A DNA stretch of 64,000 nt from an uncultured Gemmatimonadales bacterium (GTDB taxonomy: Bacteria; Gemmatimonadota; Gemmatimonadetes; Gemmatimonadales; Gemmatimonadaceae): assembly GCA_963850905.1 (NCBI GenBank), contig CAWKMU010000003.1:3456001-3520000 (forward strand), written 5' to 3'. The notes below the pieces were generated by a model, which searched no databases, had not been told where the DNA came from, and worked only from the letters and a program-made list of their open reading frames with translations. Shown in pieces: positions 7,440 to 63,697 of the stretch (the stretch's first letter is position 1; each line of letters opens with the position of its first letter). Both the position numbers and the translations under genes were made by a program.

Positions 7440-7570
7440 GTAGGGGCGACGCAATGCGTCGCCCTACGGTGCGGCGATGCGACCATGATTCGTCGGGCGC
7501 CCCAAAATGCGACCCGCGCGCGTCGTGTACGGTTCGGCCAACGGCGGGCGACGCATTGCGTCGCCCCTAC
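7440..7570. repeat. REPIN-like inverted doublet of GTAG-type REP
   Basis: GTAGGGGCGACGCAATGCGTCGCCC at 7440-7464 and its exact reverse complement at 7546-7570. Confidence 0.85.
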
Positions 7571-7583
7571 CCGCGCACCGGCG

Positions 7584-8053
7584 TCAGCGACTTTCGATGG
7601 CGATACCGCTCGTGGCCAACGGGGCGTCTCGCTGCATGTAGAACTTGTACTCGTCCTCGTGCGTAATGCGAAACCCGTGCTCGATGTAGAACTGCACCGC
7701 CGGGTTGATCTTGACCACGGGCACGGTCACGGCCTTCGATTGACTGACCGCTCGAGCCCAGAGTCGCTCCACGATGATCCCGCCGATACCCAGGCGCTGC
7801 GCTGCAGGCGCTATGTACAGCGAGCCGAGGTTGATCGCCTCCTCCGTGGCTTGCTCTTGCAGCCATCGACATCACGGCCATCAGCCACGATGATGCGCGC
7901 TTCGGCCAGACGGAAGAACCCCGCGAAGTGCTCGGCCTGTCGACCCTCATCCCAATCAAACAAGCGCACCAGCAACCCGCCCATCGAAGCCAGAAATACC
8001 CAGCGGGCAAACGCAACGTCATCAGGTCGGGCCGCTCTCACTTCAATGCGCAT
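7584..8053 (-). pseudogene. GNAT acetyltransferase split by a 1-nt frameshift near 7866
   Basis: MRIEVRAARPDD...GRDV in one frame continues as WLQ...LYIAPAAQRLGIGG...NPAVQFYIEHGF in another; restoring one G gives DVGWLQ. Confidence 0.75.
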
Positions 8054-8157
8054 GTGGTCATCGAGTCCTGTGGATCGGGGCATCGCGTACAACGCTTGCC
8101 TTCATCTGGCCCTCTGGTATGCTTCGCTTTCAGCGTTCGCGAAACGAGGACTGAATC

Positions 8158-9294
8158 GTGAGCCCCATGCGCGGATACAACTTTACCGAGCGTGTGCGAA
8201 AGGTACTTGCGATGGCCCGGGAGGAAGCAGTCCGCCTGGGCCACAACTACGTTGGGACGGAACACATTCTTCTCGGCCTGATCGCCGAAGGTGACGGAGT
8301 GGCGATCGCGATATTGCACATTTTCAACGTTGACGAGGCCGCGCTGCGTCACTGGATCGAAGAGGAGGTCAACCTTCCGAAAGCCAAGCCTATCGTCGGA
8401 GGCGATCTCCCATACACCTCGCGAGCCAAGAAAGTGCTCGATCTGGCGATGCAGGAAGCCGGGCAGCTTGATCACAGCTGCGTTGGAACGGAGCACCTTC
8501 TACTTGGGCTCTTGGGCGAGGAAAACGGCCTTGCAGCTCACGCGTTGGCCGAATCGGGCGTCATCACAGACGTGGCGCGGAAGGAAATCATCCGTGTGCT
8601 CAGCGAGCACCCGCGGGAGTCAGGCGCGCTCGGCCGCTGGCTGGCCGGGCAAGCCCCTGGCGCTCACCCGGCACCAGAGCATAGGCACGCGGCGGTTCGG
8701 TATGCAGAGGTTGGCTGCCGGATCCCCAAAGACTACTTCTGGACCATCGGCTGGGGCGAGAGCGATGTCGGCATCGAGACCGGGTCGTACGACGCGGCAC
8801 TGACGATGGCCGGAATCGAGAACTTCAATATCATGCTCTATACGTCGGTGCTGCCACCGGAAGCGACCGAGATCTCGCAGTTGCCGGACATTCACCACGG
8901 GTCCGTGCTCGAAGGGATCATGGCGATCCAACACACCGACAAGCCCGGCACGCGGATCACCGCGGGCGTCCTTCTCGCTAAGGTGTTCCGCACGACCGAT
9001 CAGTCCTTCCTCGGCGGTTTTGCGTGTGAGTACGCCGGGAACGACGACACCGGGCACGCGGAAGCGAATCTGCAAGAGGCCATGCGCCAGCTTTTCGCGC
9101 GCCGGTATTCGTCTGACCTGTACCGGCTGGAGCTCGGGAAGATCGTCGTTCGTACGTTCGTACCGTCGAAGGCCTTCGGCACCGTGCTCGTCGGGATCGG
9201 GTTTTCCAGCTATCTCTCGCCCGTCCTCGACTCAAACGTCACCATTGTACCCGCGCACAAGGACAAGTCGCACGTCAAGTACACCACCCGGTAG
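8158..9294 (+). CDS. Fusion of Clp N-terminal repeat domain and pyruvoyl-dependent arginine decarboxylase
   Basis: FTERVRKVL...GTEHILLGL...YTSRAKKVL...GTEHLLLGL (ClpC-type N domain), then GES..SYDAAL..AGIENFNIMLYTSVLP..HGSVLE..GGFACEY (AaxB/PdaD-like). Confidence 0.88.
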   Translation: MSPMRGYNFTERVRKVLAMAREEAVRLGHNYVGTEHILLGLIAEGDGVAIAILHIFNVDEAALRHWIEEEVNLPKAKPIVGGDLPYTSRAKKVLDLAMQEAGQLDHSCVGTEHLLLGLLGEENGLAAHALAESGVITDVARKEIIRVLSEHPRESGALGRWLAGQAPGAHPAPEHRHAAVRYAEVGCRIPKDYFWTIGWGESDVGIETGSYDAALTMAGIENFNIMLYTSVLPPEATEISQLPDIHHGSVLEGIMAIQHTDKPGTRITAGVLLAKVFRTTDQSFLGGFACEYAGNDDTGHAEANLQEAMRQLFARRYSSDLYRLELGKIVVRTFVPSKAFGTVLVGIGFSSYLSPVLDSNVTIVPAHKDKSHVKYTTR

Positions 9295-9297
9295 GAC

Positions 9298-9438
9298 TAG
9301 GGTTTGGGACAAATCGAAAGGTCGATCACGGTGCACATTGACCGGCATTGGATCGGTAGGGGCGACGCATTGCGTCGCCCGTTGTTGTGGTCGCGGTTGT
9401 CGTTCCCCGACCCCCAACCCCAGGCCGCAAACCCCAGA
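9298..9438. repeat. Composite REP-containing element, copy A
   Basis: REP at 9356-9380; flanks acaaatcgaaagg.cgatcacggtgcac...ttgga.cg and gttgtcgtt.cc.gaccc are shared with 63539-63697. Confidence 0.8.
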
Positions 9439-9476: not shown

Positions 9477-11183
9477 TCACCTCCGAATCAGCTCGACCCT
9501 CCGATTCCGCGCACGACCTTCGAGCGTCGAATTCGAGTCTACCGGTGACGCAGCCCCAAACCCATTCGACGTCAGTCGATTGGTCCCGATGTGAAAACCC
9601 TTGACCAGGGTGTCGCGAACGGCCGCTGCGCGACGCTTCGAGAGTGCGAGATTGTACGGGTCGCCGCCAATGCTGTCCGTGTACCCGTTGATGGTGAGCG
9701 ACCAGTCTGGGTTTTTGTGCATCAAATCGGCGATCTCATGCAGGACCGGGCCAGACTCTTTCCGGATCGTCGCCTGCGCGAAATCGAAATAGATCCCGTA
9801 GACGAGCACCTTTCGCTCCTTCGTCAGCGCGCGCTCCATGCGCTGCTCGCCGGCGGCCTCGCCACCGGCGCCGCTTGCACCACCACCGCCTGCGCCGCCA
9901 CCGCCGCCGCCGCCACCACCTCCCCCACCCCCGCCTGCCCCGCCTCCGCGGCCTGCGCCTCCTGCACCGCCGCCTGACCCTGCTCCCCCTCCCGCTCCAC
10001 CTCCTCCGCCCGCACCCGCGCCGCCTCCGCCACCCCCTCCCCCTCCACCTGACCCGCCCCCGCCGTTCCCGGCCAAATCGCCCGCGTCATCGGAGATGCG
10101 GACCACCTGGACCCCCAGGGTCGTGTCCAGCTGCCAGACACCGTTCACGCGGACAAAGCCACTGCTATCCGTGTGCGTCGTGTCCTCTTTCAGTTCCATC
10201 TCCTTTCGCATCAGCACGAGTGGATCGCGTGGATCGTCGAGAATGAGGTACTCGCAGGCGGTGTAGCGGATTTCGGCATGCTCCGCATAGGTGACGCTCG
10301 CATTGGAGTCACACTGCACGTGCACAGCCGGCAAGTTCACGGGCGTATCGTTCAACAGCACCGGCACGCTGACCGGCCGCGCCTCCACCCGCCGGACAAA
10401 TTCATGGTCGGTTCGGAAGGCCCCGAAGCCATCGGGGACCACCACGCCGATCGTTTGCGTGTTGCCAGCTTTGATCGCTGCGAGCAATCGGGCGGAAAAT
10501 GTGATGGCCGTCGTGCCCAGGTGCACCTCCGGCGGGGCAGAAGCCGACTGCGACACGAAGAAGGGGGCATAGCCACACGACGTGTCCTGGTCGGCCCTCA
10601 AAGCGACCCGGCGGGTGTGAAGCGGCGTCGGGATACTCTTTCTCTTGAGGAAGTCGTACTTCGGGACGTCGCCTGAGATCTCGAAGCTCACCGCGCTATC
10701 GCCCAAGTCGGTGAGCCGCTTCATGGACTCGTAATCGCCGTCCCCCGTCGAGACCGCTGTGACCACGGTCAAACCGACGCGGAGCGGGACGGAGTCACCG
10801 TTCGCCGTACTCGACGCGCTCCACGGCCGATGGTCAGGGATCGAATCGGGCTCCGCACCATTGGGGCTCAGGCACTCCGACGCGGAGCGAATGACTCCCG
10901 CGCTCTCGGGTCGCGACGCACCGCTGGCGGTCGGCGCCGACCCCTGGGGTCCGGTTCCGGAATCAATCGGCAGTTGGTCGAGTCCCGACGTCTGGCCAGC
11001 ACTCGGTTCATTGTGGCGATGGCATGCGGCCAATGCGCAAAGCGCCTGCACCGCGCCGAGCGCCACGCTGATGCGAATGGTCGCGCGGCGACGGGTTCGG
11101 TGGTGCTGCAGTGATGCCTCTGCCACTGCGCTGCTCACGTCAAGGATGCAGGGCCTTGCCGATCGCCTGCTTGGCCGCGCCAC
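9477..11183 (-). CDS. OmpA-family (C-terminal peptidoglycan-binding) lipoprotein with long Gly linker; start uncertain
   Basis: Lipobox LAAC; YGIYFDF...INGYTDSIG...YNLALSKRRA...GRARNRRVEL; poly-Gly linker. Confidence 0.85.
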   Translation of the reverse strand: MARPSRRSARPCILDVSSAVAEASLQHHRTRRRATIRISVALGAVQALCALAACHRHNEPSAGQTSGLDQLPIDSGTGPQGSAPTASGASRPESAGVIRSASECLSPNGAEPDSIPDHRPWSASSTANGDSVPLRVGLTVVTAVSTGDGDYESMKRLTDLGDSAVSFEISGDVPKYDFLKRKSIPTPLHTRRVALRADQDTSCGYAPFFVSQSASAPPEVHLGTTAITFSARLLAAIKAGNTQTIGVVVPDGFGAFRTDHEFVRRVEARPVSVPVLLNDTPVNLPAVHVQCDSNASVTYAEHAEIRYTACEYLILDDPRDPLVLMRKEMELKEDTTHTDSSGFVRVNGVWQLDTTLGVQVVRISDDAGDLAGNGGGGSGGGGGGGGGGAGAGGGGGAGGGAGSGGGAGGAGRGGGAGGGGGGGGGGGGGGAGGGGASGAGGEAAGEQRMERALTKERKVLVYGIYFDFAQATIRKESGPVLHEIADLMHKNPDWSLTINGYTDSIGGDPYNLALSKRRAAAVRDTLVKGFHIGTNRLTSNGFGAASPVDSNSTLEGRARNRRVELIRR

Positions 11184-30937: not shown

Positions 30938-30962
30938 GTAGGGGCGACGCATTGCGTCGCCC
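30938..30962. repeat. GTAG-type REP
   Basis: GTAGGGGCGACGCATTGCGTCGCCC, preceded by gccttggaccg as in the 63618 copy. Confidence 0.85.
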
Positions 30963-33652: not shown

Positions 33653-34209
33653 CTGGACGCACTGGGCTCAGGGATGGCCAGGGCGACGAACCGGTCCAAC
33701 GCCCGTGTGACGCGCGCATGGTCACCCGTGCTCAAGAGCTCCAAGAAAAGCCCGTCGAACACCGCGACGCATAGCGTCGCCATTGCTTTGGATCGGATCG
33801 ATTCCGAAAGCGCGCGCTCGCTGAGTGTCAGCCAGGCCGACGACGATTTCTCCAGATAGCGGCCATATTCGGCGGGGTTCTGGATGGCAATGATCTGGAC
33901 CTCATAGAGCAGCCGAAAGTACGGCAGGTTCTTCGAGCTCGTCGCCCATCGCCAGTAACGCTTGATCGGGGCTTCTGGGCGCAGCCCGGAATCGGCCCTG
34001 GTCATCGCCACGAAGGACGCCTGGAGACGGGACTGCAGTTCGCTAAAGACCTCCTGGAGGAGGCGCTCCTTCGACTGAAAGTGAAAAATGAGGAGCCGCG
34101 CACTGGTGCCCATCGCCGCCGCCATCGGTCGCAGCGACACGTTGGCGACACCGTTCTCGACCAAGTAGTCGACCGCGGCATCGAGCAGTTCGGCCTTGCG
34201 CGCCAGCAT
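33649..34209 (-). CDS. TetR/AcrR family regulator
   Basis: ELLDAAVDYL..GVANVSLRPMAAAMGTSARLLIFHFQSKERL. Confidence 0.9.
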   Translation of the reverse strand: MLARKAELLDAAVDYLVENGVANVSLRPMAAAMGTSARLLIFHFQSKERLLQEVFSELQSRLQASFVAMTRADSGLRPEAPIKRYWRWATSSKNLPYFRLLYEVQIIAIQNPAEYGRYLEKSSSAWLTLSERALSESIRSKAMATLCVAVFDGLFLELLSTGDHARVTRALDRFVALAIPEPSASS

Positions 34210-63538: not shown

Positions 63539-63697
63539 GGGGTCTGGGGTCTGGGGTCTGGGGTCTGGGAACAAATCGAAAGGCCGATCACGGTGCACGG
63601 TGAACGGCCTTGGACCGGTAGGGGCAACGCTTTGCGTCGCCCGCCGTTGTCGTTGCAGTTGTCGTTACCAGACCCCAGACCCCAAACCCCAGACCCC
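63539..63697. repeat. Composite REP-containing element, copy B, with inverted heptamer arrays
   Basis: (GGGGTCT)x4 at 63539-66, REP at 63618-42, (AGACCCC)x4 with one mismatch at 63670-97. Confidence 0.85.

Follow-up and report, generated by a model that had tools for sequence, protein, structure and literature searches.

Can the head of a protein-unfolding ATPase be placed on a metabolic enzyme and, if so, what would it do there? This question is raised by a gene in a 64,000-nucleotide stretch of DNA from an uncultured soil bacterium of the Gemmatimonadales (GenBank assembly GCA_963850905.1, contig CAWKMU010000003.1, positions 3,456,001 to 3,520,000), here called the window. The gene, at 8158..9294 on the plus strand, encodes in one protein a ClpC-type N-terminal domain (N-domain) and a pyruvoyl-dependent arginine decarboxylase (PvlArgDC). 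It indicates that the phosphoarginine (pArg)-binding head of ClpC can be copied from the unfoldase onto an enzyme, in this case in a genome with the McsA/McsB kinase pair. The extent of pArg signalling outside ClpC-dependent degradation has yet to be settled, and the wider pArg regulatory landscape is described as poorly understood in the ClpC2 preprint (PMC13345244; this and the two other papers below are cited from excerpts).

The frame runs for 378 amino acids (aa) plus a stop codon, without internal stop or frame change, which bears out the single uninterrupted open reading frame (ORF) proposed in the initial annotation of the window. Every motif quoted there (FTERVRK, GTEH twice, YTSRAKK, NIMLYTS, and GGFACEY) was located in the ORF, and the Thr and Ser codons had been placed correctly at 8842-8847. 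Two stretches match the Pfam family Clp_N (PF02861; E 1.2e-26, 93 bits, cut-off 20.7). Solved ClpC and ClpC1 N-domains match aa 8-151 with E about 1e-34 (3wde and 2y1q, E 4e-34), while chains of ClpC2 (E 6e-15 and 2e-14) and ClpB (4e-7) match more weakly. PvlArgDC (PF01862; E 1.4e-24, 87.2 bits against a cut-off of 22.7) is matched at aa 189-349, covering profile positions 1-160 of 161, and the Methanocaldococcus jannaschii enzyme (1n2m) also matches the C-terminal part (E 1.5e-7). Clp_N and PvlArgDC are the only families found in the 378 aa; since AAA+ modules and an M-domain are lacking, the fusion protein is not a Clp ATPase. There are two candidate start codons: GTG 8158, beyond which the frame cannot be longer because of an in-frame TGA at 8152-8154, and ATG 8167, which aligns with the start codon of clpC.

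It is hardly credible that two adjacent genes have been joined by an indel error in the assembly. Frames are broken elsewhere in it, as clpC has a 1-nt insertion relative to a sister species of the same genus (G103), and speA (TIGR01273), intact and above the cut-off in 4 of 4 genus relatives, is in five pieces in different frames (G000:C3:2309404-2311301). In addition, no read contig covers 8593-8676, so the linker of this assembly is not independently confirmed. Over 8060-8592 and 8677-9281 the sequence is repeated, with 0-1 differing letters and without indels, in contigs from four public runs; all four runs belong to one study and are possibly of the source sample. The same single-ORF architecture is present, at 73% identity, on the separate contigs of P0002, P0250, P0252, and P0003, and the sister species keeps the first codons of the fusion joined directly to the enzyme. 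Because it is also found in the P0002 and P0003 clusters, the fusion architecture is real and is not peculiar to this assembly, a case that the initial annotation had named as one that would refute it.

Both Pfam families are present in three of the 120 best hits from 5.8 billion proteins, these being the window protein, P0002 (380 aa), and P0003 (374 aa), the last two each 73% identical to the first. The P0002 cluster has four members on four contigs (380, 380, 365, and 331 aa) and the P0003 cluster has one. When the enzyme part was searched against proteins of 350-2000 aa, the same three were retained from 1065 candidates. A Clp_N motif in frame upstream of related PvlArgDC genes was seen at none of 56 genome loci, and at none of the 71 metagenome loci where the motif search placed the gene (80 loci were kept from 163 relatives and the other nine were not judged; the P0002 and P0003 contigs are not among them). 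Likewise, the best 150 hits listed in a search of representatives include no second double-domain protein and are dominated by multi-Clp_N proteins, although independent fusions of distant PvlArgDC subfamilies may rank lower, and an Atlas search returned Clp_N clusters only, with scores of 0.77-0.78, below the level that counts. The fusion is very rare, being known from three sequence clusters in one small clade.

Typical relatives of the enzyme are about 205 aa long and begin 6-8 codons before a conserved RY.E.GCRIP motif. The subfamily is mostly found in Acidobacteriota metagenome-assembled genomes (MAGs), with few in Gemmatimonadales. In the family to which the window belongs, PF01862 is present in 5 of 201 genomes searched and 4 of 77 genera, and in its genus in two of five genomes; these tallies include four genomes flagged as unpublished (G007, G033, G034, and G134), none of them individually decisive. 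In the literature collection searched, no publication was found joining pyruvoyl-dependent arginine decarboxylase with Clp, or combining Clp_N, domain fusion, and phosphoarginine, and those naming arginine decarboxylase together with McsB are unrelated by title and abstract. The architecture appears to be undescribed, in keeping with the initial annotation, which knew of no description. The principle of a ClpC head outside the unfoldase is already known from ClpC2.

Two observations were made alongside these searches. Many hits are tandem arrays of two to eleven ClpC-like N-domains without AAA+ modules (P0121, P0122, P0128, P0054, P0087, P0104, and P0109), one example having 1762 aa and 11 matched stretches. 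In these soil phyla, the ClpC head on its own seems to have been reused often as a module. Also, in a Gemmatimonadetes MAG (L149:2977-4092), a PvlArgDC ORF of 371 aa, with the Pfam match at aa 16-175, has a C-terminal extension of about 190 aa for which there was no family hit. Either a further fusion or the loss of a stop codon could explain it.

The N-domain of the fusion can be traced to clpC. Starting at ATG 8167, its DNA in the window is 76-79% identical to the 5′ end of clpC in the same genome. The N-domain of P0003 is 83-84% identical to ClpC of genus g1, sharing with it the signature IEDTV...KAQQTTGPD, and 79-80% identical to ClpC of two other genera (L010 and L013). These similarities mark the N-domain as a copy of the clpC 5′ end of the host lineage itself. 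The four fusion rows of the enzyme tree all belong to one seven-row clade with P0004, G103, and P0005 (SH-aLRT 95; quick tree of 51 rows, with seven loci failing the motif or length filter and L156-L159 left out), for which one fusion event would be the simplest reading. A single origin is compatible with the N-domain tree (quick tree of 22 rows, with P0073 and P0113 dropped for their duplicated repeats), in which the window forms a clade with P0002/P0250 (support 95) and P0003 is in a polytomy with ClpC.

Across genera, ClpC N-domains are 91-99% identical. Those of the fusions are 61-66% identical to one another, although the enzyme parts are 87-90% identical to that of the window, so that within the same proteins the N-domain has diverged three to four times as much as the enzyme. 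In the N-domain tree, the branches of the window and P0002/P0250 measure 0.48 and 0.33, whereas the overall median is 0.023 and no ClpC row exceeds 0.04. The fused N-domain evolves more than ten times faster than that of ClpC.

The changes keep clear of the conserved Clp_N core. Against clpC, the ratio of non-synonymous to synonymous substitution rates (dN/dS) of the N-domain is 0.16-0.22, with dS of 1.3-1.7, near saturation; between clpC genes it is 0.02-0.04. The window, with 0.21, is below the approximately 0.5 expected if one copy were neutral. Relative to ClpC, the window N-domain has 52 changes in 146 positions, yet just one of the 31 conserved columns (at least 80% conserved across 361 Clp_N domains) is changed, where 11 would be expected (Mann-Whitney p 6e-11 for this avoidance). 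Changes in conserved columns number 3 against 10.3 expected in P0002 and 2 against 4.8 expected in P0003. The contrast in entropy, 2.76 versus 1.69 bits, is less dependent on the choice of background. By these measures the N-domain is still under selection, but relaxed or redirected, a pattern that would be expected when the fold and generic pockets are needed and the ClpC-specific contacts are not.

In the sister species G103, the head has been lost. Its gene encodes 230 aa beginning MHEDETVSRMRGYNLSEQPGG, and comparison with the window by BLAST gives three blocks: the enzyme (8713-9295, 91%), 39 nt containing the ribosome-binding site, start, and MRGYN (8144-8181, 90%), and part of the upstream ORF (7594-7780, 92%). 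The gap extends from codon 9 to the linker. On the 5′ side it starts after Asn8, while on the 3′ side its edge is within the hypervariable linker and is not exactly fixable. MRGYN is the sole remainder of the Clp_N part in G103 and in P0004, which share the joint of GYN to LSEQ, and this stub is a remnant because GYNF is the conserved N-terminus of ClpC and is in none of the other stand-alone relatives. G103 has removed the domain by an in-frame deletion. The deletion forms nest with the window and P0003 in the enzyme tree, with support of 80-85 only. A further protein, P0005 (232 aa), begins inside linker-like sequence, due either to loss or to a truncated gene call. As the sister species retains the enzyme without it, the N-domain is not needed for catalysis.

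Upstream of the fusion gene is a divergent pair of minus-strand ORFs in two frames, 7584..7772 and 7811..8092, for which neither Pfam nor NCBIfam gave a match. The 3′ part of this upstream ORF is 92% identical in G103 and its 5′ part is missing there. Relative to the window, two segments have thus been lost from the G103 intergenic region.

The enzyme looks intact, with the cleavage residues aligned and a dN/dS against G103 of 0.19 at dS 0.26. Profile alignment of the enzyme part pairs Ser230 with position 53 of 1n2m and 2qqd, Thr229 with Ser52, and Glu291 with Glu109, the E of LIMEYEG in M. jannaschii. In AaxB/PdaD, Ser53 is the cleavage serine and Glu109 aids cleavage; the cut at Ser53 of AaxB yields two chains, of which beta is small and alpha larger (PMC2720952). 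Self-cleavage of the fusion would be predicted at Thr229/Ser230, with Ser230 becoming the pyruvoyl group. The initial annotation expected the Clp domain to stay on the small beta chain; it would indeed be on the beta chain, but this would be the larger of the two (229 versus 149 aa). Curated equivalogs are missed, with 54.1 bits against a cut-off of 106.95 for the archaeal TIGR00286 and 43.4 against 207 for PRK12398. Since TIGR00286 is not reached, the enzyme is assigned to a divergent subfamily, with arginine as its presumed substrate.

The initial annotation had also claimed that the pArg-pocket residues of ClpC are present, and alignment finds equivalents of both Thr7/Glu32 and Thr81/Glu106, namely Thr10, Glu35, Thr87, and Glu112. 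We take Thr81 of ClpC to be part of pArg pocket 2. With Lys91, these residues are kept in all three fusions, P0002 having Ser for Thr10. Asn8 aligns with Arg5 of Bacillus subtilis ClpC, which is presumably a phosphosite. In the full-length AlphaFold2 model, which is informative for the N-domain and linker only, the block-mean predicted local distance difference test (pLDDT) is 79-93 over aa 11-150, except for the loop at aa 71-80 (57). It is below 50 in the linker, in the beta-chain part, and in the tail, with aa 166-259 poor throughout, and the predicted template modelling score is 0.45. Docking of the N-domain on the enzyme trimer by complex prediction (score 0.00, mark 0.32) is evidence neither way. 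The N-domain of ClpC has two pArg pockets, in which roles are given for T7, E32, and E106; free pArg activates ClpC with half-maximum near 0.22 mM, and unphosphorylated arginine, in the excerpt, does not (PMC12583610). The N-domain is accordingly no arginine-recognising module, contrary to the initial annotation.

The genome encodes a pArg system. A McsA-like gene (NF053706 over its full length, 115 bits, under the cut-off of 210) and a McsB-like gene (PF00217, E 4e-58; NF002194, 368 bits against 385) are directly upstream of clpC, and PF00217 adjoins clpC in five of five relatives searched. The presence of McsB, which the initial annotation wanted checked, can thus be affirmed, and because the genome encodes mcsA-mcsB-clpC in a row, pArg marks are probably made here. 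On the arginine side, speA is in all five genomes of the genus, although fragmented in this assembly, and there are an agmatine deiminase homologue and two arginase-family genes. Beside SpeA, the fusion enzyme is on these grounds a second, accessory arginine decarboxylase that supplies an agmatine route already in place.

Two frame breaks qualify this picture. The clpC insertion (GCC-G-CAG, against GCC-CAG in G103) is between the Clp_N repeats, at about 3223660 in G000:C3 (about 2715 in L019), and divides the gene between two frames. Either the assembly has an indel here or the gene was inactivated very recently; in the second case, no intact ClpC-type head would be left but that of the fusion. 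Likewise, the five pieces of speA are either due to assembly indels or mark a pseudogene, and with a pseudogene the genome would have no arginine decarboxylase other than the fusion enzyme.

The proposal that the N-domain is a pArg-binding regulatory or tethering module, which would link the enzyme to McsB signalling in the manner of ClpC2, is the one that we favour, but tentatively, giving it somewhat less than an even chance. A copy of the clpC 5′ end containing the complete N-domain with both pArg pockets was joined in frame to a horizontally spread, accessory PvlArgDC, making a fusion that is young and lineage-restricted. The proenzyme would cleave itself between Thr229 and Ser230, the alpha chain (230-378) carrying the pyruvoyl group. 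The beta chain (1-229) would stay bound and hold the N-domain by some 30 residues of flexible linker, and in this way the expected trimer would display three pArg readers. Agmatine production, or the assembly, location, or lifetime of the enzyme, might then respond to pArg signals made by McsA/McsB. There is a precedent in actinobacterial ClpC2, a transcriptional repressor in which the Clp_N-like domain is a pArg sensor altering oligomer state and output (PMC13345244).

A number of points weigh against this proposal. The domain is dispensable, having been deleted in G103 and P0004, which kept an intact enzyme. Identity of 61-66% among the fused N-domains, compared with 91-99% among those of ClpC, is fitted equally by weak selection and by a new function, and the evidence for constraint is affected by dS against clpC being near saturation and by the 361-domain background, which was collected as hits to the window protein and tilts the result towards the window row. 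As the pocket residues also cap helices of the fold, their conservation may be structural. There is no operon partner or conserved neighbour pointing to a pathway, either in the window or at 15 related loci. Both the binding of pArg and its effect on the enzyme are inferred, by analogy with ClpC and ClpC2.

Two more specific forms of the proposal are less probable. A portable pArg reader may gate the metabolic enzyme, with protein-bound or free pArg binding the three tethered heads and so switching agmatine or polyamine output, or assembly; the pArg would be made by McsA/McsB under proteotoxic stress and the free form released by ClpCP proteolysis. This is quite unlikely as it stands, but if true it would carry pArg signalling into metabolism, outside its roles in proteolysis and transcription. 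Less likely again is a bolder variant, in which free pArg or pArg-peptides would be caught by the heads and supplied to the decarboxylase as substrate.

A different explanation is that the fusion is near-neutral and transient, its head folding but having no regulatory role and being lost lineage by lineage, and its enzyme working like any stand-alone PvlArgDC. Such a course is unlikely, though a serious contender. It would account for the rarity (3 of 3 long forms in one clade and none at the 56 genome and 71 metagenome loci), for the in-frame deletion in G103 and P0004, and for N-domain divergence three to four times that of the enzyme part, on long branches (0.48 and 0.33, where ClpC has about 0.02). 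It would not lead one to expect an intact frame in all five full or near-full sequences, nor changes that strongly avoid conserved Clp_N columns and spare the four pocket residues. Moreover, the freely drifting linker has become unalignable and the domain has not.

The head could instead face ClpC, as a decoy on a trimeric scaffold competing for ClpC ligands (pArg-substrates, adaptors, and peptides that bind the N-domain), or as a handle for turnover by McsB/ClpCP. Lys91, the counterpart of Lys85, is present in all three fusions, and Clp_N proteins without AAA+ modules are common among the hits. The domain was directly copied from the ClpC head, which binds adaptors and pArg-substrates (PMC12583610), and ClpC2 is proposed to sequester ClpC1 ligands (PMC13345244). 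We regard this as decidedly unlikely, in view of the change of about 37% in the ClpC-specific surface and the unexplained tie of a decoy to a decarboxylase. Also against it is Asn8, in place of Arg, at the presumed Arg5 phosphosite. Sensing of free L-arginine, the substrate, by the N-domain is highly improbable. The link is thematic only, an arginine-related pocket being joined to an arginine-using enzyme, whereas unphosphorylated arginine is inactive and pArg active on the ClpC N-domain (PMC12583610), and ClpC2 binding needs the pocket for the phospho-group, T99A abolishing binding (PMC13345244). Allostery and decoy action, both suggested in the initial annotation, received no support from anything found in this analysis.

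Whichever explanation is correct, the locus is a datable case of domain gain, fast divergence, and loss. Because the sister species has the enzyme minus the head, a clean test of a pArg reader on a non-proteolytic activity is possible. The weight of the case is limited by rarity, with three clusters in one small clade, and by signs of weak selection on the head.

The features of the locus are collected in the table. The linker has a G+C content of 73% (measured over nt 8611-8712) and is not alignable among the three fusions, and the tail has the invariant end motif H-K-D-K-S-H-V-x-Y, with low model confidence. The fusion gene is solitary, its neighbours being a DUF3857/transglutaminase-like protein, the ORF pair in two frames, and a convergent OmpA-family protein; the flanking genes of 15 relatives have nothing in common. 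Neither an arginine:agmatine antiporter nor a porin is encoded among 15 ORFs of the window (503-21716) or among 30 flanking ORFs at the 15 loci, and, with no antiporter, the locus is not an acid-resistance system of the AaxABC type. No RNA-recorded run was among the listed runs holding the stretch, which says nothing on expression.

Features of the fusion gene and its surroundings (window coordinates; ~ marks aligned residues)
Feature	Position	Strand	Basis or remark
GAGGA, Shine-Dalgarno-like	8146..8150	+	7 nt before GTG 8158; arrangement also in G103
ATG-CGC-GGA-TAC-AAC (MRGYN)	8167..8181	+	clpC similarity starts here
ClpC-type N-domain, two Clp_N repeats, aa 9-151	8182..8610	+	Pfam, structure matches, model pLDDT 79-93
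FTERVRK, aa 9-15; Thr10 ~ ClpC Thr7, pArg pocket 1	8182..8202	+	alignment; PMC12583610 (excerpt)
GTEH, aa 33-36; Glu35 ~ ClpC Glu32, pocket 1	8254..8265	+	alignment; PMC12583610 (excerpt)
YTSRAKK, aa 86-92; Thr87 ~ ClpC Thr81 (presumably pocket 2), Lys91 ~ Lys85	8413..8433	+	alignment
Second GTEH, aa 110-113; Glu112 ~ ClpC Glu106, pocket 2	8485..8496	+	alignment; PMC12583610 (excerpt)
Linker, aa 152-180, Pro/Ala/His/Gly-rich, low model confidence	8611..8697	+	
Catalytic domain of PvlArgDC; conservation begins at RYAEVGCRIP (aa 181), Pfam at aa 189-349	8698..9204	+	
Thr229-Ser230 in NIMLYTS (aa 224-230), predicted self-cleavage site	8842..8847	+	alignment; PMC2720952 (excerpt)
Glu291 in GGFACEY (aa 286-292) ~ M. 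jannaschii Glu109	9028..9030	+	alignment; PMC2720952 (excerpt)
C-terminal tail, aa 350-378, past the Pfam domain, ending in HKDKSHVKYTTR	9205..9291	+	subfamily-invariant
G+C-rich palindrome (terminator-like hairpin) 3′ of the stop codon; one of the dispersed REP-like repeats as well	9360..9380	+	
REP-like palindrome copies	7445-7463, 7547-7565, 9361-9379, 30943-30961, 33763-33781, 63623-63641		

A palindrome resembling repetitive extragenic palindromic (REP) elements, GGCGACGCA(A/T)TGCGTCGCC, has six copies in the window against 0.01 expected. Three of them bracket the block made up of the upstream ORF pair and the fusion gene, and a jump in read-contig depth at 9328-9378 fits a dispersed repeat. 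The OmpA-family protein (9477-11183, minus strand) has a nearly pure Gly/Ala run of about 100 residues before its OmpA domain.

Among known systems, the closest to the enzyme is its own stand-alone subfamily (about 205 aa), to which it is 72-79% identical (L105-L155) or 90% identical (G103, L104), and with which it shares the tail and the status of a solitary gene without conserved neighbours; these relatives are without the N-domain (0 of 56). PdaD of M. jannaschii (1n2m and 2qqd) and AaxB share the PvlArgDC match, the cleavage serine, the Asn preceding it, and the glutamate, but the fusion enzyme is divergent, has an invariant extra C-terminal tail, and bears a domain of 150 extra aa on its beta chain. 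Unlike AaxABC, it has no arginine:agmatine antiporter or porin near its gene. The head has the double Clp_N fold, both pockets, and the Lys85 of the ClpC/ClpC1 N-domain (B. subtilis 2y1q and 5hbn, Mycobacterium tuberculosis 3wdb and 6cn8), although without AAA+ modules or M-domain the fusion cannot unfold proteins, and the head has diverged by about 37% from a parent that is 91-99% conserved. ClpC2 (8ad9 and 9p2p) is likewise an ATPase-free, ClpC-head-like domain joined to an unrelated module. In the fusion, however, the head is N-terminal and keeps both pockets, where ClpC2 has one, and its partner is an enzyme and not a DNA-binding domain. As the match to ClpC2 (E 6e-15 and 2e-14) is far weaker than that to ClpC (1e-34) and there is no DNA-binding domain, the fusion is not an orthologue of ClpC2, but by analogy it may work like ClpC2 without being a member of that family.

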